Below the pieces are notes generated by a model, which did no database searches, had not been told where the DNA came from, and saw nothing but the letters and a program-made list of their open reading frames with translations. From the UHGV virus genome UHGV-0036853: 64,000 nucleotides of DNA; one strand, written 5' to 3'. Positions 2,021 through 34,000 of the stretch are shown here, one piece after another. This DNA is from a virus. A program made the translations under genes and the position numbers. How positions within the stretch are numbered: position 1 is the first letter of the stretch; each line of letters opens with the position of its first letter.

Positions 2021-2293
2021 TCAGGCTCCTTTTGTTTTGTTGATTCGTTTTAAAGCGGCGGATTCGTCGAATACAATCGCATCGTGGTTAAGGAGTCTGG
2101 ATACACGAGCGAGGATTTTTACGACCTGCTCGCTGACTAATCCAAACTCGCGATCTGTCGCTTTAATTCCGGCAGCGCCTAGAATTGACGGCAGTGCGAT
2201 GACAGCGTACTCACCGTGATAAAAGACAATCTCTTTTGCCAGTTGGGTAGGGGTGGTTGTAGCGCCATTAATAATCGATTTAAGCATTAGCAA
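2021..2293 (-). CDS. hypothetical protein
   Basis: 90-aa ORF tightly packed between the FEN and RecA-like genes. Confidence 0.4.
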   Translation of the reverse strand: MLMLKSIINGATTTPTQLAKEIVFYHGEYAVIALPSILGAAGIKATDREFGLVSEQVVKILARVSRLLNHDAIVFDESAALKRINKTKGA

Positions 2294-3282
2294 TACCTTT
2301 CGAATGGAAGAACAAACACTTCAAGGTCTTCAAGGAACGAACGGAAATTCAGCTCGTAGCACAGTTGCTCGAATGCTTTCACGTCACGATTGCCTTTGAT
2401 TGTTTCGATTTCGGTAGGCGGAAACTTCGTCTCAATCAGGTTCATTAGCGTGATGTTTCTCTTGAACGCTTCGAGCATTCGACAGCCTGTTTTCTCGTTG
2501 AAGGCATTCTTCGCTAGTTTGTTGAAGGCGGTCTTATGACGCCCTTTATTAACCACGATTGAGCCGTCGTTGATGCCGCGTACCATCGTTGCGACACTTC
2601 CCCATTCATGCAGCAGCTCTTTCGCGCCGCCAGCACCAATGCCACCAACACCGCTAATGTTGTCCGAGTTATCGCCTTGTAATGCTTTTGCTTCCAAAAA
2701 TGCGCGAGGCGTGGCGAATCCTGTCAGCTCCGCAAATTGCTCAAAATTAACCTGCTTGTTTTTGGCGTCTTCACGCAGGCTTACCCAGCTTACGTTTTCG
2801 CGAACTAACTGAAGCCAGTCGCTATCGCCTGTTAACAGATAGATGTGTTCAACGGTTGGCTGCGGTGCCATGCGGGATACCAGCAGCCCGGCCAGATCAT
2901 CCGCTTCTGCATCTTTTGCAATGATTTGGTTAACACCAAGCGCGGTCATCATTTTGAGGATGTATGGCTTCTGGACAGCAAAGCCTTCCTTCATCTTTTT
3001 CATATCAGGATCGTCGTCGCGATTTGCTTTGTAGTCCGGGTAAAAGTCGCGACGCTTGTCACTAAATCCATCCCAAAGAATCATAGGTCGGGCATGGAGG
3101 ATGGAGGCATAACGACGGACGTTCTTAACAAAGCCGAAAGCAGCCTGTACTTCCATTTCGCCGTTGTGCAATTTGTCAGATTGTTGGTGGTAATAACCCA
3201 GGCTATTGCCATCTACGAAGAGATAATTCACCGGTACATTCCTTCCAAAAAGTAAGGCGTCCGTAGACGCCTTACTGGTCAC
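2287..3282 (-). CDS. 5'-3' exonuclease / flap endonuclease (T5 D15 / Pol I N-terminal family)
   Basis: 331 aa; LLTGDSDWLQLV acidic metal-site motif and helix-hairpin-helix segment DNISGVGGIGAGGAKELL. Confidence 0.85.
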   Translation of the reverse strand: MTSKASTDALLFGRNVPVNYLFVDGNSLGYYHQQSDKLHNGEMEVQAAFGFVKNVRRYASILHARPMILWDGFSDKRRDFYPDYKANRDDDPDMKKMKEGFAVQKPYILKMMTALGVNQIIAKDAEADDLAGLLVSRMAPQPTVEHIYLLTGDSDWLQLVRENVSWVSLREDAKNKQVNFEQFAELTGFATPRAFLEAKALQGDNSDNISGVGGIGAGGAKELLHEWGSVATMVRGINDGSIVVNKGRHKTAFNKLAKNAFNEKTGCRMLEAFKRNITLMNLIETKFPPTEIETIKGNRDVKAFEQLCYELNFRSFLEDLEVFVLPFERYC

Positions 3283-3291
3283 GTAATGGGA

Positions 3292-4314
3292 TTACAGAGA
3301 GTCCAGCTCTCTCAGTAGGTCATCCAGACCTTCGTCTTCCGTCGCAGATGCGGCTGCTACAGATGTCGTTGCGTCTGCTTCAGACTCTTTGGCTGATGCG
3401 GCAGCAGAACTTGTTTCTGATTTAAATTCAGATTCCATTGCTCGCAGAACTTCTTCATCAACCAGACTGGTTGGTTCAGAAGCTGGAGTGTGGGCGGTTG
3501 CTACAGCCGTCGCTCCTTCCGTATGACCAGTGATCGAGCCAAATCCAGGCAGTGCAGAGGCCGATGTTTTCGCTGTTGAGGAAATTGCTGGTGCCGATGC
3601 AGTGGCAGTTGGTGCAGCGATGCCAATCAGACGACCCATAGTGCGAACTGTCGCAAGAAGGCGAGTTTCATCGGCCTGATTCACATAAGCAATCAGGTCA
3701 TGTTGGTTGTTCCAGAATTTATCTTCGATATCACCTTTGAAGACTTTACGTTTTGGTGAAACGTCATATTCTGTATCGCGACCAGAGCCTGTGCGCTTAA
3801 TTTGAAATGCGTAACCTTCCTCTTTGCTTAATGGATTGCCGATATCGTCAGCGATGTCTTCGGTGATTGCTTTGCAGATATCATCGAACACAGTGGAAGG
3901 CAGTTCGATTAACTGACATTTCTCTGCATCGGAGAAATCCTCACGAGTTGAAAGAATGCCGTTTACCAGGTAGCGAGGGGTTGCACGCATTTGACCGATG
4001 CGCTCTTCCATTGCTTTGTTACCCTTGTGACGAGCGCGACCTTCCATCACCATTTCGCATAGCTGACAAGCGCGACCGTGAGTATGTTGCTCACAAATAT
4101 AAGCATTGGTTGCTTCTTTACCTTCCTCGTTCTGATACTTAATGTAGTGCATACCAAAAGTCTGGAAGAACTTACCATTCGGGTCGTCTTTATTAGGGAA
4201 GATGCGGATATAGTTGATGCCGTCTTTTAAGCGGGTCAAATCAGTGTTTTTGCCACGTTTGGCGGCAATGTCTTCACGAGTTTTGTTAAGCAAATCAAGT
4301 AATGTCTTAGACAT
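3292..4314 (-). CDS. ssDNA-binding protein, gp32-like
   Basis: 340 aa; His/Cys zinc motif CEQHTHGRACQLC; Ala/Ser-rich linker; acidic C-terminal tail EDEGLDDLLRELDSL. Confidence 0.5.
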   Translation of the reverse strand: MSKTLLDLLNKTREDIAAKRGKNTDLTRLKDGINYIRIFPNKDDPNGKFFQTFGMHYIKYQNEEGKEATNAYICEQHTHGRACQLCEMVMEGRARHKGNKAMEERIGQMRATPRYLVNGILSTREDFSDAEKCQLIELPSTVFDDICKAITEDIADDIGNPLSKEEGYAFQIKRTGSGRDTEYDVSPKRKVFKGDIEDKFWNNQHDLIAYVNQADETRLLATVRTMGRLIGIAAPTATASAPAISSTAKTSASALPGFGSITGHTEGATAVATAHTPASEPTSLVDEEVLRAMESEFKSETSSAAASAKESEADATTSVAAASATEDEGLDDLLRELDSL

Positions 4315-4431
4315 GTGTTTCTCCTTGTTGTGATTTGGCCGATGGCGCTATGCGCGTTGGGCTTTCGTTCATTCGTGGCTCTTTCGAGCTGTTAAATGAT
4401 AGATCAGTACTTACTTATTATCTATCAAAAA

Positions 4432-4863
4432 TCAACGGGGAGTAATAAAGCGTTCAGAGCCTAATCGATCTAACTCAACGATGGCCATCTTCGACGCCTG
4501 AACGATCATGTCTCGGCGATGCGAAAAGGCGGCGACAGCATGTTTGTATATGTCTGCGATGTGCCGTGCTTCATCCAACTTCTGCCGTTTAGACAGATAC
4601 TGTGGGTTTGTTTTAACCTTAGCGTCCAGTACAGACTCGTTGAACTTAATGCCGTTCATACTCAAGTTCTTACGCTCTGTGTCGTATAGCTTTGCTTCAA
4701 CAGCTTCAAGGTTAAGTTTTGCCTCTGCGACACTTCTTTCTGCATGAGCGAGTTTTGAGCCATACTCCATTAAAAGGCGGGGTTGTCTACGCCAGACTTC
4801 CTCCAGATTGTCTCGGTCAAACTCGAGATCAGACATTATTTTCTCGTAAATATCGGTGATCAT
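4432..4863 (-). CDS. hypothetical coiled-coil protein
   Basis: 143-aa ORF, charged and helical. Confidence 0.4.
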   Translation of the reverse strand: MITDIYEKIMSDLEFDRDNLEEVWRRQPRLLMEYGSKLAHAERSVAEAKLNLEAVEAKLYDTERKNLSMNGIKFNESVLDAKVKTNPQYLSKRQKLDEARHIADIYKHAVAAFSHRRDMIVQASKMAIVELDRLGSERFITPR

Positions 4864-5239
4864 AGTGATATATCCATACTTATTTTTACGTATTAATTAT
4901 ATCAAAGAAAGGAGTGTTATTTTGTTTAGGAGAGAGTTTTATTAGGGTGCAATAGGTCGAATGTTACATGGTTCAGTGAGTCGTAAACTTTTGCTTCATG
5001 GAGTGGTTTTCAACCTGACAATTTTTTTGTTAATATCAATGAGCTACTTGCATTTTGCTCCGATGATGCAACGTTAGTTATTGAGTACCGCAGGACATGT
5101 GGGAATTAACGCCTGTGGAGAGAACGGTCAGATAGGATCACTCATGGAAGCAGGAACTCTTGTTCGTTAGTACATAGAGAATGTCAATACTGAAATTGAT
5201 TCGTAACTGCTCTTTTTCTATATAGTTGAGGATATTACG

Positions 5240-5572
5240 GTGAAAAAAGTATTAGGTGCTATTTTTGGTGGTTTGCTTCTTCTGCCAGTTGTAAGCAATG
5301 CAGCGGATGCACAAAAAGCCGTCGACAATAAAAAACCTGTTAACGCTTGGACCTGTGAAGATTTCTTGGCTGTGGACGAATCTTTCCAGCCTACAGTTGT
5401 AGGTTTTGCTGATGCTCTGAACAAGAAAGGCAAACCCGAAGATGCTGTTTTAGATATTCAGGGGGTTGCTACTGTAACTCCTGCGGTCATTCAGGCTTGC
5501 ACTCAGGATAAAAAAGCCAGCTTTAAAGATAAAGTTAAAGCCGAATGGGACAAAATTAAGAAAGATCTATAA
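5240..5572 (+). CDS. hdeA: periplasmic acid-stress chaperone HdeA
   Basis: 110 aa; signal peptide; near-colinear match to E. coli HdeA as I recall it (CEDFLAVDESFQP, VTPA..QACTQDK, EWDKIKKD), roughly 85 percent identical. Confidence 0.9.
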   Translation: MKKVLGAIFGGLLLLPVVSNAADAQKAVDNKKPVNAWTCEDFLAVDESFQPTVVGFADALNKKGKPEDAVLDIQGVATVTPAVIQACTQDKKASFKDKVKAEWDKIKKDL

Positions 5573-5646
5573 TTCATAGAGTACGTTTTATCGTATTCTT
5601 ATTGAATATTGAGCGAGTAAATCTCCTGTTAGGATGTTTTTCTTGA

Positions 5647-5985
5647 ATGGGGTGTAAAATGACAGTTTCATCTCTACGTAAGGCCATGATTTTTTTAGGT
5701 GCAGTAGCTGCTCTTTCGCTGGTGAATGCACAATCTGTGTTGGCTGCCGGTGGTTCAGCTAATGATATGACTTGTCAGGAATTTATTGACCTGAATCCAA
5801 AAGCGATGACGCCAGTTGCTTGGTGGATGCTCCATGAGAAAACAGTATATAAAGGCGGTGATACTGTAACTCTGACTGAAACGGATCAGACTCAGATTCC
5901 TGAAGTGGTTGAATACTGCAAGAAAAACCCACAAAAAAACTTGTATACCTTCAAAGATAAATTGGCAAATGTCCTGCCTAATTAA
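5647..5985 (+). CDS. hdeB: periplasmic acid-stress chaperone HdeB
   Basis: 112 aa; signal peptide then DMTCQEFIDLNPKAMTPVAWWMLHE..VYKGGDTVTL..EYCKKNPQKNLYTFK, matching E. coli HdeB as recalled; start could be the second ATG at 5659. Confidence 0.85.
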   Translation: MGCKMTVSSLRKAMIFLGAVAALSLVNAQSVLAAGGSANDMTCQEFIDLNPKAMTPVAWWMLHEKTVYKGGDTVTLTETDQTQIPEVVEYCKKNPQKNLYTFKDKLANVLPN

Positions 5986-5990
5986 CTAAT

Positions 5991-6017
5991 AAAACCCGCC
6001 AAATGGCGGGTTTTTTA
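5991..6017. terminator. bidirectional rho-independent terminator (hdeB on plus, dnaE-like on minus)
   Basis: Hairpin cccgccaaatggcggg flanked by an A-run and a T-run. Confidence 0.65.
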
Positions 6018-9000
6018 CTATGTCTTAATAGTTTCTGCTACGTCGGCTAATATCGCTTCTAGTCGTTCTCCCTCTTCAGGTCTGAAGTAAAGAATGTTGG
6101 GGTTAAACCCGTAAAAGACAGTAACGTCAAGGTCTGGAAGATACTCCTTCCTGCCGACTAAATCGGATGGCTTGTTTTTGTTGTTAAACATTGCCGTTGC
6201 CCGGCTGCCACACGTCAGCACATAGGTCGGACGCACCAGATTGATCTCTTCACGCATAAAGTCGGTGAACTGGCCGATCTCGTCTTTGGTGTAGTCCTTT
6301 TCTTTGTCTTTCACCTTTTTGCAAACGCCTGTGACATAGAGATCGCCCATGCGCAAATCCCCAGCCGTCAACAGCTTGGCCTTAAAATCGTCGTATCCGT
6401 TTTCCATAAAGTAACCGGTTCGAGCATCATTGCCGTTCGCATTGTCCAGAATGATCATGATTTTCGGCTTAATACCAATGCTGGGGCGGATTAGTTCATC
6501 ACCCAAGCCCATTTCAGCCGCCATCCGTGTCATGAGCACGTTAATCTCAGCCGAACGTTTGGGGTTCATCTCAAACGGACGTGAGGCTTTAACTGCATCT
6601 ATGACAAGGTTTCCCATCAATTCAGCCTGGTCGCGGAGGCGCTCTGGATCAGTTGCTGGCAGACTACCTGGCTCGATGGATGCAAACGCCCCTACTTTTT
6701 GCAGCGATTCGCGCACTCGACTATTACAGGCACGTTTCTCGACAGCTTCTTCGAATTGCGCAAGTGATTCGAATTTGCCGCCAACCTTTTCTCGCGCTCT
6801 CATGATGGCCAGGCAGCCATTCTCAGAACACCCTTTCACAGCAGAGAAGGGCGCATACAGCACCTGGCTACCATCTTCAAGCGTGCGGATCTCGATTCGG
6901 TTAGATGACACGTTAACGTCTGGTGGCAATACGCGAATACCATAGGTCAGCGCATCTTTAACCAGCCCCTGGTGTTTATCTTCGCCAAGAATAGTGAGAG
7001 CAGCAGCGAAAAACTCTGCGGGATAATGAGTTTTCAACCACATAGATTGATAACTGATTAAGGAGTAAGCAACAGAGTGTGATTTGTTGAACTGGTAGGC
7101 ACCATTCTTTTCGAATGCGGTCCAGATCTCCTTCGCTTTCATCTCTGATAGCCCTGGATGTGACGCTGTAACGCGTACTGCGTTTATAGGTAGTTTTGCG
7201 CCGTACTCAAGTGCCTCTTCGACAGTTTTCAGAGTTCCGTCTTCGCATTTAAAATGTTCCGCACGGTGAATGCGCTGTGTAGTGCCATCTTCCAGCTCAA
7301 CGTCTATCCAGCCAGCTTGAGCCTGAACGATGAACTTCTCGCCCATGCTCTTCATTTTTTCCATGTCTTTTTTGCCGATCGCTTTACGAACGCCGTCAGC
7401 TTCAGCCATTGTGAAGCCAGCAAGCAATCGAGTCGCGTTCATCGTCTGTTCCTGATAGAGAATCACGCCATTTGTTTCTGCGGTAAGTTCATCAAGAACG
7501 GGGTGTAATGATTCCGGCGTCATAAAGCCTTTGGCGACAGAAACATAATCATCCAACATGCCTGACTGAATTGGTCCCGGCCGGAAGAGCGCAGTCGTAG
7601 CAACGACCGTTTTAAAGCTCATTGGCTCAATTCCACCACCTAAATCTTTAAGCAGCTTGCGCATTGGGCCTGATTCAAGCTGGAAAACACCTTGAGTGTA
7701 CCCAGCAGCAAAACCATCCAGCACCTTGCGATCTTCAAGAGAAATGGCATCAAGATTGATATCTTCACCTCTGTTCTCTTTTATGTAGCGTTTTGCACTA
7801 TCGAGCAAATCGAGAGTTGCTAGGCCAAGCACGTCCAGCTTAATTAGGCCCATAGCCTCGCAGTAACGCTTGTCAAATGCGATACAACGCGCGTCACCAC
7901 GTCGTTCAACCGGTGTACGTTCTGTCAGAGGAACACCTGCTACGATCATCCCTGCCGCATGTCTACCAAAGCCACGCATAAGGCTTTGTAACTTGCAGGC
8001 TGCATTGAATGCATCAGGGTATTTTGTCGCGTATTTGTCGAGACTTGCCAGTTGTTCGCGCAGCTCCTCCAATGGAAGGCTATCATCCTCGACGTTCTTC
8101 AGTTCTTTTGATACCGCCATATCTGCGGACTCCACACCATAAATACGAGCGGTGTCACGTAGTGCAGAGGCCGCGCCCAGGTAGGTGAAGTTCGGAATGC
8201 CTGCAACGTAATCTTCGCCGTAGCGTTCATTCAGATACTCGATCACCTCATGGCGACGTGCCTGGCTGAAGTCCAAGTCCGCATCTGGCAAGTCGAGACG
8301 CTCAGGGTTGATGAAACGCTCAAACAGAAGACCGTGACGGATTGGGTCGACGTTGGTTATGCCTATGCACCACGCCACCAGAGAACCGGCAGAGGAACCA
8401 CGACCAGGCCCAACGGGAATGCCAGTTTCACGACTATGATTCATCAGATCGCGCACCATCAGGAAGTAACCACAGAATCCCAGGCGAGTAAGCGTGTCCA
8501 TTTCGTACTTTAGCCGCTCAACATAAACCCTGTTCTCAGAAGCTGGTGGTGTGTAGCCAAACTCTTTTGTGGTAAGACGTTTACGCAGCCCTGCAACAGC
8601 CAGTTTCATCAGCGTTGCAGGTTCGTCGTCTGCCATCTTGGGCAGTGCTGGTGGCAATTCATGCCAGCGCCATGTACAGGCTTCGATAATGGCGTCCTGC
8701 GTTGTTGAGGCCATTGCAGCTGTTACCGGCACATCCATGCGAACGGAGAAGGCTTTAAGCGCCTCAAGGAGATGGCGGCGACCATTGACGGCGTTATCTC
8801 GCTGGTGGGGGATACGCAGACGATGCGGCTGGTCGATTTTGATGTTGTTCGTAACCATGTGCGCAATGTCTTTAATGTCTGCATCGTCGATCGATTCGTA
8901 ATAAGCGGGATAAAACGCTACTGGCTCTATTTTCAGTGCGCTGGCGACTTTCATCGCCCGGAAGTTAATCTGGTCGTAGAATGGGGTAGGGTGCGGATAA

Positions 9001-9536
9001 ACCACACTATAGAAGTTGTCTTTTCCACCCGCTGTAATCAGTGTGCTTATAATTTTTGCAAAATCGTTGCGTTGGAACACGCTACCGATGTCGGAAGTGA
9101 GCAGGATGATGTTGCCTTTGGCATATGTAGAAACCAACTGTTCGAGCGAGAGACGCGGTACAAAGTAGAACTGTTCTCGTGTGTTGGCCACCGTCATTAG
9201 TTCGCAGATGTCGCGATATCCTTGCTCATTTTTAATTAGAGCGGTAAACGAGTAGTTACGTCCTCGCTCTAATGATTCCATACATCCCTTAGACTCTTTA
9301 GCAAGTTTAGCCCGGTACTCGTATGTGGGATCATCAACGATATTTAGTTTCACACCACAAATAACCGCCATGTCGTCACCAGCGGCACGTTGTAGTGGAA
9401 TAACACTCGCAATATTCATGCTATCTGCTGAAATTACAGCGGTGTAGCCAGCTTCTCTGGCAATCTTCACCGCGTTTTCCGCTTTTAACGCCGACTCCCC
9501 AAGTGAGAAGTCAGTTCGAACCATCAGTGCCTTCAT
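6018..9536 (-). CDS. DNA polymerase III alpha subunit homolog (DnaE-type replicative polymerase)
   Basis: 1172 aa; PHP-like N-terminus, catalytic region with LDLPDADLDF (PDxDxDF-type motif), C-terminal OB-like region. Confidence 0.85.
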   Translation of the reverse strand: MKALMVRTDFSLGESALKAENAVKIAREAGYTAVISADSMNIASVIPLQRAAGDDMAVICGVKLNIVDDPTYEYRAKLAKESKGCMESLERGRNYSFTALIKNEQGYRDICELMTVANTREQFYFVPRLSLEQLVSTYAKGNIILLTSDIGSVFQRNDFAKIISTLITAGGKDNFYSVVYPHPTPFYDQINFRAMKVASALKIEPVAFYPAYYESIDDADIKDIAHMVTNNIKIDQPHRLRIPHQRDNAVNGRRHLLEALKAFSVRMDVPVTAAMASTTQDAIIEACTWRWHELPPALPKMADDEPATLMKLAVAGLRKRLTTKEFGYTPPASENRVYVERLKYEMDTLTRLGFCGYFLMVRDLMNHSRETGIPVGPGRGSSAGSLVAWCIGITNVDPIRHGLLFERFINPERLDLPDADLDFSQARRHEVIEYLNERYGEDYVAGIPNFTYLGAASALRDTARIYGVESADMAVSKELKNVEDDSLPLEELREQLASLDKYATKYPDAFNAACKLQSLMRGFGRHAAGMIVAGVPLTERTPVERRGDARCIAFDKRYCEAMGLIKLDVLGLATLDLLDSAKRYIKENRGEDINLDAISLEDRKVLDGFAAGYTQGVFQLESGPMRKLLKDLGGGIEPMSFKTVVATTALFRPGPIQSGMLDDYVSVAKGFMTPESLHPVLDELTAETNGVILYQEQTMNATRLLAGFTMAEADGVRKAIGKKDMEKMKSMGEKFIVQAQAGWIDVELEDGTTQRIHRAEHFKCEDGTLKTVEEALEYGAKLPINAVRVTASHPGLSEMKAKEIWTAFEKNGAYQFNKSHSVAYSLISYQSMWLKTHYPAEFFAAALTILGEDKHQGLVKDALTYGIRVLPPDVNVSSNRIEIRTLEDGSQVLYAPFSAVKGCSENGCLAIMRAREKVGGKFESLAQFEEAVEKRACNSRVRESLQKVGAFASIEPGSLPATDPERLRDQAELMGNLVIDAVKASRPFEMNPKRSAEINVLMTRMAAEMGLGDELIRPSIGIKPKIMIILDNANGNDARTGYFMENGYDDFKAKLLTAGDLRMGDLYVTGVCKKVKDKEKDYTKDEIGQFTDFMREEINLVRPTYVLTCGSRATAMFNNKNKPSDLVGRKEYLPDLDVTVFYGFNPNILYFRPEEGERLEAILADVAETIKT

Positions 9537-30107: not shown

Positions 30108-30114
30108 TTACTCA

Positions 30115-30723
30115 TCAGTTATACAGATTTCTATTTATTACCGGTACTCTGCCATTTACGCTAAAACTATGGCCGCCATTAAGTTGGTTTACGAATATCG
30201 AGCTAACAGTATTTCCATATGCCGCATATCCATAAACCATTGTCATGGCTCCGCCCGGTACTGGAACAGCGAACACATTCGCATATGTTGGGATTATCGC
30301 TGGTGGGTAATCAAAAACATGCCCTCCAGAGCTGTTCCACTCCGTATTATTAAGAAAGGTAAATGAAAGTGGGATATTTGCCGTATTATAGATTTCCTCC
30401 CCTTGTGCATTGAAAAAACTCATGCCCCAAGTTTCTTTTTTGGCTATACCTTTCGAAAATACGTATATCGTGGCACTAGAGTCGCTACCCTGACCTCCGA
30501 AACTGTAAATCACCTGGTTGTTACGCACTATTCTGTTGGCTATTAATGAAACAGCTTTCGAATAGGCAACAAAAATCATCGGTGAACGATCTGGAGATAT
30601 TTGGGTGTTAAACTCTGTCCCGCCGGACAAAGAAACAACCTGCTTTCTCTGAAAAACGATAGGAGACAAAGAAGGAGACATCCAGACCTTCCCGTCAGAT
30701 CGATATATCTTGCTTCCGTACAT
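30115..30723 (-). CDS. tail fiber-associated protein (distal fiber or assembly)
   Basis: 202-aa ORF coupled (TAATG) to the upstream 84-aa ORF, downstream of the side tail fiber. Confidence 0.35.
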   Translation of the reverse strand: MYGSKIYRSDGKVWMSPSLSPIVFQRKQVVSLSGGTEFNTQISPDRSPMIFVAYSKAVSLIANRIVRNNQVIYSFGGQGSDSSATIYVFSKGIAKKETWGMSFFNAQGEEIYNTANIPLSFTFLNNTEWNSSGGHVFDYPPAIIPTYANVFAVPVPGGAMTMVYGYAAYGNTVSSIFVNQLNGGHSFSVNGRVPVINRNLYN

Positions 30724-30977
30724 TATTTTTGAAAAACCAATATGTTTAAATTACCACTAGCTCCAGACCATGAAATGGTATTTCCAGAAACCGTAAGACT
30801 TGTGTATTTCCCATTGGTTACGTCCATTATGTAATAGTCGATTCCCAATCCCGCCTCAACATCATATGTTCTACTTCCAGAACCAGAGGGAGTAAAATAA
30901 TCGAGGTAATAAACAGGGGCCAACGCATCGACCATCTCCTGTCTTGATGGCGACCAAACCTGTGCACCATAGCTCAT
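30723..30977 (-). CDS. tail fiber-associated small protein
   Basis: 84-aa ORF. Confidence 0.35.
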   Translation of the reverse strand: MSYGAQVWSPSRQEMVDALAPVYYLDYFTPSGSGSRTYDVEAGLGIDYYIMDVTNGKYTSLTVSGNTISWSGASGNLNILVFQK

Positions 30978-31067
30978 AAATATATCCTTATAACTGCGGT
31001 TGTGAGGCCATATTTATCGACCTCACAACCATCTTATAAATTATCCTTATTAGAAATAATGTCTAAA

Positions 31068-34000
31068 TCAGTTGCTTGTTGCCCCAACAGTACCGGCAAA
31101 TTTCAGCCATTGACCTGACGGACTTCTATTACTACGGTAGTGATAAACGAGGATTGCGTTTGTCACTCCACCGTAGTCAGCTTTATGTGACGTTGTTAAA
31201 CGAATTGTATAATCACCGTTAGGTAGATTAAAAACTTCGATTATAGATTCTGCTAATTCTACAGCACCAAATCCCGTTATATTGTTGATACTGCCAGCAT
31301 TGAATCCCATAGCATCGCCAAAGCCAATCCAATAACTTTTGCTAAATGCCCCATTTGATTTAAGGTGGCTAATGAATGTGGACAAACTCATGCCCATATC
31401 CCCACCAGAAACAGAGGAAGTTCGCACAGTCATGCTTGGAAGAGAACTACTCTTCACATAGGAACTGAGAAGGTTTGTTACCTCTGTTTTCGTATAAGCA
31501 TTAAGGTTAGCCGCAGTCAAAGTTATATCGGCAGAGCCATCAAACGCCACACCAGCAATTTTCCTTGCTGTCTGCAATTTTGTGGCGGTTGCAGCATTAC
31601 CAGTAGTGTTCTGATTACCGGTCGTATTCACACCAGGTAAGTTAATATTGGCTGTACCGTTAAAACTAACACCACCGATAGTACGAGCCGTTTGTAACTT
31701 CGTGGCTGAAGCTGCGTTACCAGTCGTATTCTGATTACCCGCTATATTAACACCCGGCAAGTTAATATTGGCGGTACCATTAAACGACACACCTCCAATT
31801 GTTCTGGCTGTCTGCAACTTCGTTGCAGAGGCTGCGTTGCCAGTAGTGTTCTGATTACCGGTGGCATTGACACCTGGAATAGAGTCTTTGGACGTATAAA
31901 CTTGCGCCCATTCAGACCAACTGGATGCATCCGTATCTCGTCGCGAACGTACATGTACAGGCGCATGAGCACCACTTGTACCGCTCCAACCTATGAACAA
32001 CTCACCTTCACCAACGGCCGTTGCGCCCTTAAGATGAAGCACATTCCCGTAAGTCGAAGGGTAGCCATTGTTATATGCCTCGTACATCTGCAATCCAGTC
32101 GCAGCACCTTGTGTTGTACCGGTGAGCGCAGTAACGCGTCCTCTGGACGTAATTGTTGGTATTGAAATATTCGCAGAGCCGTTAAACGACACCCCGTTAA
32201 TAGTTCTAGCAGTTTGCAACTTGGTCGCTGTGGCCGCGTTACCGGTAGTGTTCTGATTACCGGCAGCATTAACACCAGGCAAATTAATATTCGCAGTGCC
32301 ATCGAAGCTAACACCACCGATGGTTCTTGCTGTCTGCAATTTAGTAGCTGTAGCAGCATTACCTGTGGTGCTTTGGTTGCCAGCTTTGTTAACTCCGGGC
32401 AAGTCGATGTTGGCAGTTCCGTTAAATGAAACGCCACCAATCGTTCTTGCCGTTTGAAGTTTTGTAGCGGTTGCGGCATTACCAGTAGTGCTCTGATTAC
32501 CTGCCGTGTTTACACCAGGCAAATTTATGTTCGCAGATCCATCGAAGGCCACGCCGCCGATAGTTCTTGCAGTCTGCAATTTCGTGGCGGTACTCGCATT
32601 GCCATTCAATGAACCAGTTAATCCACCAGTAACAGACAACGGACCTGAAACCGTCCCTCCTGATGTTGATAATGCACCTATATCCGATGGCGTAGGTTTG
32701 TATTTTGTATTGTAGTCTCGTCGCCAGCCTGGAGAATAATCTGTCCCGTGGTTAATATAAGTAAATTGAGCGTTAGCAGTACCACCACCGCTAGATGTTG
32801 TTGGTGTGGTAACGCGGATCGTCATTGCTGACTTTATCCCCATTACCTCAATTACTGCCCCGGCAAGATGAATATTGCCACAACCAGTATCAGTAATGAT
32901 TTTGTTGTTGCCATACGACCATGAGCCTTTACACATCCAGTACGGATGATTAAACGCCCCTTGAGAGTCCAACCATTCGACAAACTGTGCCGTAGTCCAG
33001 TTTCCTGCTGTTGTACTTACAGAGCCTCCAAATGCTCGCCCAGCGCCAATATTTTTCGTGAAGGTATCCTTACCTGGTATATCAGCACCATTCTGGTTCT
33101 TCGCCAATCGGCTATTCGCATTGTCATTCGCAGCTTTAACTGCCTTTGGAGTTGCAGCCAGTGATTCGCTGGTGCTATCGACAGCACTGCTAAGTTTCAC
33201 AACACCTTTAGTTGTAAGGCTTGCGTCTTCCATCGCAACTGCACCGGCAATCTCTTCAGCACGATCAGCGGCAGCTTCTGCACGGGTCGCAGCGGATTCA
33301 GCAGCAGTTTTGCTCTGAGATGCAGCCGTCGCACTGCCTGCCGCCTCTGTTGCTTTCGTGGATGCCGTTGAAGCACTACCCTTCGCAGCTGATGCCTGCT
33401 TGGTCGCCTCATCCTTTGAAGCAGACGCCGAGGTGGCTGATGCTGACGCAGAACTTGCAGATTCAGCAGCCGCAGTCTTAGAGGAAGCGGCATTGTCTTC
33501 TGAAGACTTTGCATTTGTTTCAGAGGTTTTCGCTGCTGATGCTGAATTTTTAGCGGCTGTAGCCTGATTCGTCGCCTCAGTCGCTTTTGCGGTAGCTGTT
33601 GCCGCTGATGACGACGCGCTTTCCGCAGATTTTCCTGCCGCAGTTGCACTTGATGAAGCACTATCCGCACTTGCTGAGGCTGCGCTTGCTGACGCTTCTG
33701 CCGCAGATTTCGAACTGTTTGCAGACGATGCACTCTGCCCGGCTGCCGTTTCAGATGCTTTTGCGTTTGTCTCTGACGCTTTTGCTGCCTTAGACGAATT
33801 TTCAGCTTCTGTTGCAAATGATGCCGCCGCGTTTGCACTCGATGAAGCGTTAGCCTCTGATGCTTTAGCCGCATCCTTAGATGCAGAGGCACTGGACGCA
33901 GATGTGGCCGCCTCCGATGCTTTAGTCGACGCTACAGATGCTGATTCTGCTGCCGCGACATATGCTGATTCTGCGTTCGTTTCAGATTTTTTCGCAGCAG

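Follow-up and report, generated by a model that had tools for sequence, protein, structure and literature searches.

The 64,000-nucleotide stretch of UHGV virus genome UHGV-0036853 analyzed here (the window) carries a complete hdeA–hdeB gene pair on its plus strand, placed between minus-strand replication genes of what is, judged by its genes and relatives, an SSU5-like temperate phage-plasmid of Escherichia. At very low pH, HdeA and HdeB are the chief protectants of the periplasm, and gastric-acid survival helps to set the infectious dose of enteric Escherichia. We consider it likely that the segment 4913–6016 is a cargo cassette in a variable slot of the phage-plasmid, which brings in an orthologous hdeAB pair of a separate mobile clade that has lost its native promoter and would now be expressed from a leader region in front of hdeA.

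The hdeA gene (5240–5572, plus strand) has a GTG start and encodes 110 amino acids, and hdeB (5659–5985, plus strand) starts with ATG and encodes 108; by homology, both products are acid-activated periplasmic chaperones. The hdeB reading frame as listed is slightly longer (5647–5985, 112 amino acids, from an in-frame upstream ATG at 5647); the ATG at 5659 agrees with the start in E. coli K-12 and with the RefSeq annotation. Both products matched Pfam PF06411 (97.6 bits for HdeA and 85 bits for HdeB, cutoff 22) as well as the NCBIfam equivalogs NF007576 for HdeA (132.6 bits, cutoff 85) and NF008599 for HdeB (172.8 bits, cutoff 124). Residues 22–110 of HdeA align to residues 1–89 of PDB 1bg8 (E 1e-48), a mature crystallized chain whose alignment places the signal peptide at residues 1–21, and residues 31–108 of HdeB align to residues 2–79 of PDB 2myj (E 3.5e-43). 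A preliminary description of the region had claimed full-length alignment to the E. coli proteins at roughly 85% identity with clear divergence, and the measured global identities to K-12 come very close to that: 93 of 110 residues in HdeA (84.5%, or 94 of 110 if the GTG is read as Met) and 90 of 108 in HdeB (83.3%), with nucleotide identities of 86 and 81%, respectively. The cysteine pairs are retained in both proteins (WTCEDF/QACTQD with C18 and C66 in HdeA, MTCQEF/EYCKKN in HdeB), and the alignment with K-12 has Asp20 and Asp51 of HdeA (mature numbering) and the Trp-Trp motif of HdeB (AWWML) conserved. In HdeA, the Cys18–Cys66 pair and the acid-sensing Asp20 and Asp51 are residues of established functional role. 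By these alignments, the products are true, if diverged, orthologues of HdeA and HdeB.

The closest known system is the chromosomal acid fitness island (hdeD, hdeA-hdeB-yhiD; PDB 1bg8/1dj8/5wyo and 2myj/2xuv), with which the window copy shares gene order, orientation, product lengths, conserved signal peptides and a homologous 5′ untranslated region (5′UTR) including the Shine–Dalgarno sequence. In contrast to the island, there is no hdeD, yhiD, gadE or other island gene nearby, the homology stops at −52, hdeA starts with GTG instead of ATG, and the genes reside on a phage-plasmid and fall outside all sampled chromosomal Escherichia alleles in the tree. The spacer between hdeA and hdeB (5573–5658, plus strand) is also shorter, 86 nt compared to 115 nt in K-12. 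It is 54% identical to its K-12 counterpart and, with the exception of the Shine–Dalgarno-proximal GAATGGGGTGTAAAATG, appears to evolve roughly neutrally.

The moron character of the pair, already proposed in the preliminary description, is supported by what relatives carry at the same site and by the base composition, both of which suggest an accessory cargo within the replication and recombination module. The uvsY–dnaE junction of related elements is either empty (a 127-bp spacer in p13P484A-3) or filled with a DUF4365 gene, hicA-hicB plus cspG (a variant also found in phage Cyrano), IS100 or an HNH endonuclease gene. The slot variants were compared over L004 2073–2199, L005 2222–3205, L006 2334–3727 and L007 2332–3180 against window 4864–6017. 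The variable DNA has its left edge near 4912, just beyond a TGATATAAT motif, and its right edge at the dnaE stop; in all variants the cargo is encoded on the strand opposite to the backbone, with a hairpin of its own ahead of the dnaE stop. The GC content of the hdeAB cargo is 39.6%, compared to 45.8% in the window and 49.5% in dnaE; chromosomal hdeAB is likewise AT-rich (40–43%). SSU5, pHCM2-type plasmids, Cyrano, CMS-2020a and PhiR41_1 share with the window the backbone, the uvsY–dnaE site, the opposite-strand cargo and the hairpin, but they differ from it in what the slot contains. The junction is a recombination slot of SSU5-like elements that samples diverse cargo, including toxin-antitoxins, a cold-shock protein, DUF4365 proteins and acid chaperones, and as such it is worth watching in surveillance.

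The assignment of the host element follows from several lines of comparison. The first 15.4 kb of the window are 99.4% identical to pECOPRAWN_FPGL2, a 110-kb circular plasmid from an E. coli isolated from prawn, whose hdeAB is 100% identical to that of the window and which encodes a RepB initiator just beyond the part corresponding to the window. Matches to the backbone region were obtained for 580 PLSDB plasmids of Escherichia, Klebsiella, Enterobacter, Yersinia (pMT1-type), Salmonella and other genera, as well as for phages SSU5, Cyrano, CMS-2020a and PhiR41_1. The dnaE gene is 82.8% identical to that of phage SSU5, and the segment 3292–8000, spanning the gp32-like gene, the uvsY-like gene and the 3′ part of dnaE, is 95–96% identical to Escherichia phages CMS-2020a and PhiR41_1. 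The window also contains phage morphogenesis genes, namely those for the portal, large terminase, major head, scaffold and tail fiber proteins.

Within this group, hdeAB is a rare occupant of the slot: it was present in 7 of the 580 backbone-matching PLSDB plasmids and in one of 5426 complete E. coli genomes, and neither megablast with the cassette nor tblastn with HdeA gave a match among 50,697 phage records. All seven PLSDB carriers are E. albertii plasmids of 62–64 kb, and wild birds are the source of several. The exact HdeA protein occurred in 213 sample blocks, with the longest contig between 50 and 200 kb in 122 of them and above 200 kb in none; the cluster names suggest E. coli, E. marmotae and E. 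albertii as the hosts, and all ten assemblies sampled for context had the gene in the same slot. HdeA homologues were found in 21 of 72,556 plasmid records, among which three are 4.8–4.9-Mb E. coli sequences, evidently misfiled chromosomes, and several are replicons of 0.8–1.3 Mb. Five IMG/VR contigs contained distant HdeA homologues (43–59% identity). In the two that were inspected (L066 3336–8276, 59%; L068 3279–8678, 43%), hdeA lies between the Q antiterminator and the lysis genes, a position that in lambdoid-type contigs classically holds toxin morons; in L068 it is flanked by two DUF1440 genes. E. coli-type hdeA (85–87%) was also seen on short contigs labelled Mucilaginibacter (a metagenome-assembled genome; L015) and Aromatoleum diolicum (381 bp, coverage 0.7; L040), which most likely represent assembly contamination.

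An important question is where this hdeAB pair comes from. In a search of 185,579 species-representative genomes, the chromosomal HdeA proteins closest to that of the window were all from Escherichia, with 84–87% identity, and the next ones (Kluyvera, Citrobacter and others) did not exceed 67%. The synonymous divergence (dS) from chromosomal Escherichia alleles is 0.69–0.88, compared to 0.47 for E. coli versus E. albertii, and a search with HdeB in a set of 5.8 billion proteins yielded two intermediate clusters, at 90 and 87% identity. Sister copies were found in E. coli contexts on contigs of 4.4–16.9 kb, namely L084 (GCA_041341215.1), L085 (GCA_016856565.1) and L086 (ERR3328571). In one of these contexts, a pef-like usher/chaperone fimbrial operon, two faeA genes and a TacA-acetyltransferase toxin–antitoxin system (TacAT) precede hdeAB, and the flanks are typical plasmid DNA; for the toxin–antitoxin alone, there were 2259 matching plasmid records, mostly conjugative. 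In another, the pair is located between an IS110 transposase gene and a MarR gene plus an autotransporter gene. Window 4997–6007 aligns to the sister contigs at 84–87% DNA identity, and therefore the shared unit consists of the leader, hdeA, the spacer and hdeB. The sister copies have the same module, the same junction and the same GTG start of hdeA, which is common to all copies of the mobile clade, but differ from the window in their non-phage flanks, a degenerate 3′ hairpin and, in L085, an HdeA lacking Cys18.

Neighbor-joining trees were built from concatenated coding sequences (600 columns, 300 bootstrap replicates, unrooted bipartitions). The mobile clade, consisting of the sister copies and the phage-plasmid alleles, was recovered in 100% of the 300 replicates, and the chromosomal Escherichia alleles formed a clade excluding the mobile copies in 99.7%. 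The sister group of the mobile clade comprises all the chromosomal Escherichia alleles sampled, and Citrobacter lies far from it. The mobile lineage may thus have separated from chromosomal alleles no later than about the time when the sampled Escherichia species radiated, or it may evolve faster. Judging from the trees and the contexts, the pair was probably not taken straight from the host chromosome but belongs to a distinct mobile clade that also resides in what appear, from their flanks, to be plasmid-type contexts.

The upstream region offers an explanation of how the pair could have become independent of its chromosomal control. The 376-bp length of this region given in the preliminary description is correct (4864–5239), whereas its implied role as the hdeA regulatory region did not hold, with chromosomal homology beginning only at 5188 (−52). 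This homology is limited to the last 48–56 nt before the start codon and amounts to 84–90% identity; the global alignment of the whole upstream region with K-12 gave 46.6%, taken as about background. The homologous part is the hdeA 5′UTR (5188–5239, plus strand), with the Shine–Dalgarno sequence GAGGA at 5228–5232. From the construct sizes and the '+1G' given for K-12 (PMC3658693), together with the alignment, transcription in K-12 starts about 51 nt upstream of the ATG, and the window equivalent of this +1G is 5189. The sites for H-NS, GadE, GadX/W and MarA/SoxS have been mapped upstream of the chromosomal hdeA promoter (PMC3658693). Because the homology starts only at 5188, searching the 376 bp for native acid-responsive regulator sites is moot. 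A GAD-box consensus found no site in the window and none in the K-12 control; it was thus uninformative and dropped.

Upstream of the 5′UTR, the gap is a mosaic. It begins with backbone intergenic DNA common to all slot variants (4864–4912, minus strand), as delimited by alignment of the empty, DUF4365 and hicAB variants, and continues with 84 bp of junction DNA (4913–4996) specific to the hdeAB-carrying phage-plasmids; the latter is not shared with other slot variants or with the L084 and L085 modules, and in searches with the whole leader it turned up in this lineage only. Then follows leader part A of the mobile module (4997–5107, plus strand), 74–81% identical to L084 and L085 and also, over 66 nt, 86% identical to an intergenic stretch close to faeA/papI genes in large E. 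coli plasmids. Together with the part that comes next, it makes up about 190 bp that the other mobile hdeAB copies have as well. The last part (5108–5187, plus strand), ending with ...GAGAATGTCAA, is a candidate for a decayed 3′ tail of a tnpB gene plus right end of an insertion sequence (IS) of the IS200/IS605 family. Window 5005–5157 matches unannotated debris in pZH177-3 and another plasmid at 70–71% over about 153 nt (E 7e-9 in 28 Gb), and the 3′ half of this debris is in turn 94–96% identical to an InsQ/TnpB pseudogene tail plus right end. The IS right end stops at ...GGAGGATGTCAA (TCAA terminus) with three different flanks (L080, L082 and L083), and in the window, L084 and L085, the equivalent ...GAG(A/G)ATGTC(A/G)A is always followed directly by the hdeA 5′UTR.

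The simplest reading, for which we consider the evidence moderate, is that one ancestral IS200/IS605 insertion placed its right end 1 nt before the hdeA transcription start and would thereby have removed the −10 and −35 elements and the regulator sites. It is similar to promoter displacement by IS200/IS605 elements with their TnpB and omega-RNA, in which the right end (TCAA) abuts the transcribed region, as here, and the candidate remnant contains the tnpB tail, the part of an intact element that gives the guide-RNA scaffold; however, what is left in the window, about 80–190 nt, is decayed and comes without a tnpA or tnpB gene. Several results speak against the IS origin. The direct match between the window and tnpB is weak (72% over 47 nt, E 0.078), the translated leader gave no TnpB match in NCBIfam or, by tblastn, in plasmids, and Rfam RF03064 (RAGATH-18) had no match in window 4950–5250 at E up to 10. 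Since the protein-level searches were negative, the call is carried by a DNA similarity of about 70%. RAGATH-18-derived guide RNAs have been described (PMC11061315), and the related debris in L080 scored 29.5 bits with this model, below the gathering score of 44.9. An origin of the unit from mRNA (retro-transfer), as suggested by homology starting at the transcription start, was also considered and set aside in favor of the simpler abutting IS right end. Related sequence was compared at L080 2501–2720, L082 2501–2720 and L083 1167–1283, and the similar debris in pZH177-3 lies directly upstream of a hok toxin gene. Were the window remnant still in use as a guide RNA, it would have the hdeA 5′UTR for its guide.

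A replacement promoter for hdeAB may reside in leader part A, where a −35-like TTTTCA (5007–5012) is followed by TG (5028–5029) and a −10 TAATAT (5031–5036). The block TTTTC-N-CTGA...TTTTTTG(T/C)TAA(T/A)ATCAAT is conserved in four diverged copies, including the plasmid debris, and we infer that it acts as an extended −10 promoter. Against this, the candidate matches the consensus at 8 of 12 positions plus the TG, a sigma-70 promoter scan of 4400–6400 with a threshold of 9 of 12 returned 0 sites, and the putative 218-nt leader RNA folds no better than its shuffles (z = +0.96, no significant structure). Rfam searches over 4400–6400 and 4950–5250 gave sub-threshold matches to the hairpin downstream of hdeB and one chance microRNA match, with no RNA family in the leader. 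A sigma-S-like −10 sequence, TCAATACT at 5184–5191, lacks conservation in L084, which has TCGATGCT instead, and was for this reason discarded as the main promoter.

Taken together, the proposed course of events would be as follows. The moved unit would comprise the leader, hdeA and hdeB (4997–6007), now residing in plasmid-type contexts and in the phage-plasmid slot, where it would lie between the promoter of the leftward uvsY–gp32–exonuclease genes and the dnaE end. Transcription would most likely start from the candidate extended −10 near 5028–5036, proceed through hdeA and hdeB and end at the hairpin shared with dnaE. HdeA and HdeB would be exported via their Sec signal peptides and, by homology, act as ATP-independent holdases that capture periplasmic proteins denatured by acid at low pH and let them go upon neutralization. 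Because the GadE, GadX/W, H-NS and MarA sites are absent upstream, expression is not expected to follow the acid fitness island program, and a lysogen might gain an additional source of periplasmic acid chaperones, under different regulation, when its chromosomal operon is off. Lysogenic conversion for acid survival, as raised in the preliminary description, is a plausible outcome, with expression and phenotype predicted from the sequence. A more specific scenario is advanced only tentatively, as we would sooner doubt than accept it: the IS insertion at the hdeA transcription start would have uncoupled hdeAB from the control of the acid fitness island by GadE, H-NS and RpoS, and the pair, spread among plasmids and phage-plasmids as a self-contained cassette with a promoter in its IS-derived leader, would protect lysogens from acid constitutively or in some other non-canonical manner, such as during exponential phase, in which the chromosomal operon is silenced. 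If true, it would amount to a gastric-passage trait transmissible among E. coli, E. marmotae and E. albertii.

The coding sequences are under purifying selection. The dN/dS ratio against every chromosomal Escherichia allele is about 0.1, and within the mobile clade it is 0.08–0.24 at a dS of 0.30–0.51. Since the promoter-less junction is common to the clade, this purifying selection has outlasted the loss of the native promoter, which argues that function was kept in the mobile clade. The within-clade identity by segment is 88–92% in the 5′UTR, 76–88% in the IS tail, 74–81% in leader part A and 69–74% in the spacer. The 62–64-kb E. albertii plasmids (NZ_CP034165.1 and six similar ones) are defective derivatives that lack the part corresponding to window 29–53 kb (about 24 kb, with all morphogenesis genes) and have IS911, ISEc20, a dnaE-splitting HNH gene and chromosomal-type metG and apbC; their hdeAB is intact. 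Other data weigh against a functional role of the cassette in the phage-plasmid. The 13 phage-plasmid copies are nearly invariant, with identical mature proteins and only three amino acid changes, all in the HdeB signal peptide, and because of this low diversity, selection after entry into the slot is not separable from what preceded it. In L085 (2750–3082), HdeA has Cys18 replaced by Arg (WTREDF) along with several other changes and a dN/dS of 0.24, which suggests that this protein has lost its function, so decay does occur within the mobile clade. In addition, the GTG start of hdeA is expected to lower translation initiation, and since nearly all E. coli already have chromosomal hdeAB (5419 of 5426 complete genomes; it is also present in the E. 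albertii type strain, L017), the added benefit of a plasmid copy is not obvious.

These observations bear on four other explanations, two of which concern the origin of the pair. A wrong joining of host chromosomal hdeAB into the phage-plasmid contig (assembly chimera or contamination) would be conceivable for a locus that is nearly universal in E. coli chromosomes, but nothing else was found in its support and its probability is practically nil. Pairwise alignment with the chromosomal copies confirmed the divergence of the segment, with a DNA identity of about 79% for the locus as a whole and 83% for its coding sequences, and complete circular plasmids from both E. albertii and E. coli contain the same junctions. 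The identity to the host copy that the preliminary description had named as a sign of chimerism is thus not there and, with the same slot context in ten of ten assemblies drawn from the 213 sample blocks, chimerism is excluded. If an Escherichia-like species outside the sampling had recently and directly donated the pair from its chromosome, the divergence would simply reflect the donor. This would fit the place of the clade as the sister group of all the Escherichia alleles sampled, at a distance from Citrobacter, and the species-representative genomes, having no closer allele, leave room for such a donor. However, the three contexts share the junction of IS remnant and 5′UTR as well as the GTG start and yet differ by 13–16% in DNA, and so the module must have moved and diversified after the junction had formed. 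Typical plasmid DNA flanks one of the sister copies, and neither the exact HdeA, never on a contig above 200 kb, nor the sister copies on their short contigs point to a chromosome. We therefore regard recent capture as rather improbable, and a separate mobile clade remains our preferred source of the cassette.

The other two explanations concern what the cassette does. As a silent passenger, it would have arrived recently, be untranscribed here and bring no gain to the lysogen. The removed native promoter and the lack of a consensus one in the scan, the GTG start, the chromosomal hdeAB of the host, the decay in L085 and the very slight variation between the phage-plasmid copies, which fits a recent arrival, would all agree with this, and such a passenger is unlikely without being far-fetched. 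Against it stand the selection that persisted past the promoter loss, the 5′UTR and leader block, which are more conserved than the neutral-looking spacer, and the integrity of the cassette in the E. albertii plasmids despite their large deletion and IS gains. Alternatively, the chaperones could serve the phage itself, e.g., by protecting the envelope or periplasm during lytic growth or infection in the acidic gut. The location of the cassette within the replication module of an apparently complete phage would suit such a role, as would the late-gene position of the distant hdeA homologues in the lambdoid-type IMG/VR contigs. Yet the pair is opposite in strand to all neighboring phage genes and has its own putative hairpin terminator, the same module also exists outside phages, and it is kept in defective derivatives devoid of morphogenesis genes, all of which makes a benefit to the phage very improbable. 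The reading of a mobile cassette with lost native control and leader-driven expression thus stays the favored one.

In terms of novelty, the proteins are ordinary orthologues, already labelled hdeA and hdeB by RefSeq in public plasmids, and their carriage is a rare but unsurprising case of phage cargo, as stress-gene morons are a familiar theme. Searches of the open-access literature returned no title or abstract that linked hdeA or hdeAB to phage-plasmids, SSU5 or plasmid carriage, and the phage-plasmid surveys searched made no mention of hde or acid-resistance cargo. The new points are the separate mobile hdeAB clade, the purifying selection within it and the candidate displacement of its promoter by an IS. 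A mobile hdeAB free of the chromosomal regulatory circuit would be a transmissible fitness trait, and overall, the finding refines known biology rather than opening new ground.

The genes flanking the cassette on both sides belong to the backbone and, as the preliminary description had it, are replication genes on the minus strand. To the left lies a gene for a uvsY-like recombination mediator of 143 amino acids (4432–4863, minus strand; phrog_2058, E 7e-69); its homologue in phage Cyrano is annotated as the UvsY recombination mediator, and the protein had no match in Pfam or NCBIfam. It is followed leftward by genes for a gp32-like single-strand DNA-binding protein (3292–4314, minus strand) and a 5′–3′ exonuclease (2287–3282, minus strand). 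On the minus strand, 4904–4896 reads TGATATAAT, recognized by eye as an extended −10-like motif and a candidate promoter for the leftward uvsY, gp32 and exonuclease genes. To the right lies dnaE, encoding the DNA polymerase III alpha subunit of 1172 amino acids (6018–9536, minus strand).

The hairpin between the two converging transcription units, described earlier as a bidirectional terminator, proved to be real as a structure by folding on both strands against shuffled sequences. It occupies 5991–6016 within the 32 nt that separate the hdeB stop (5983–5985) from the dnaE stop (6018–6020), and consists of a stem (5991–6000/6005–6014) with the GC core CCCGCC/GGCGGG and flanking A- and T-runs. 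The folding energy of 5991–6014 plus the T-run is −16.5 kcal/mol on the plus strand and −18.7 kcal/mol on the minus strand, with 0 of 200 shuffles folding as well. We consider it a putative intrinsic terminator that would work in both directions, for hdeB as well as for the convergent dnaE. The program-based terminator scan of 4400–6400 missed the 5991–6014 hairpin, probably because the A/T extension of the stem consumes part of the T-run, although this is a guess. A nearly identical hairpin is found at the same place in the hicAB + cspG variants, and other hairpins are present in the empty and DUF4365 variants. The hairpin loop (window 6002–6003) reads AAAT in some copies and ATTT in others with a constant stem (L001, L071, L073, L074 and L077 compared), which fits a hairpin that was flipped or replaced in cassettes that are otherwise nearly identical.

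Some further features of the element lie away from the cassette. Four tRNA genes (Ser-TGA, Thr-TGT, Tyr-GTA and Asn-GTT) are encoded on the minus strand at 16923–17924, with the same set in pECOPRAWN_FPGL2; bla-TEM transposons have been found inserted near tRNA loci in SSU5-group phage-plasmids in a published report. The stretch 15352–17386, adjoining the integrase, glutaredoxin and tRNA genes, is variable: against pECOPRAWN_FPGL2 (L002) 30113–33239, only short pieces align, and elsewhere the two are collinear at 97–99%. In some relatives, dnaE is split by a NUMOD4/HNH homing-endonuclease gene (L001 14344–15039; L071 7968–8663; L074 7945–8679), and in some, recA contains an intein (Intein_splicing + LAGLIDADG, 779 amino acids; L071–L074 433–2779). 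In the window, recA (945–2018) and dnaE are both uninterrupted.

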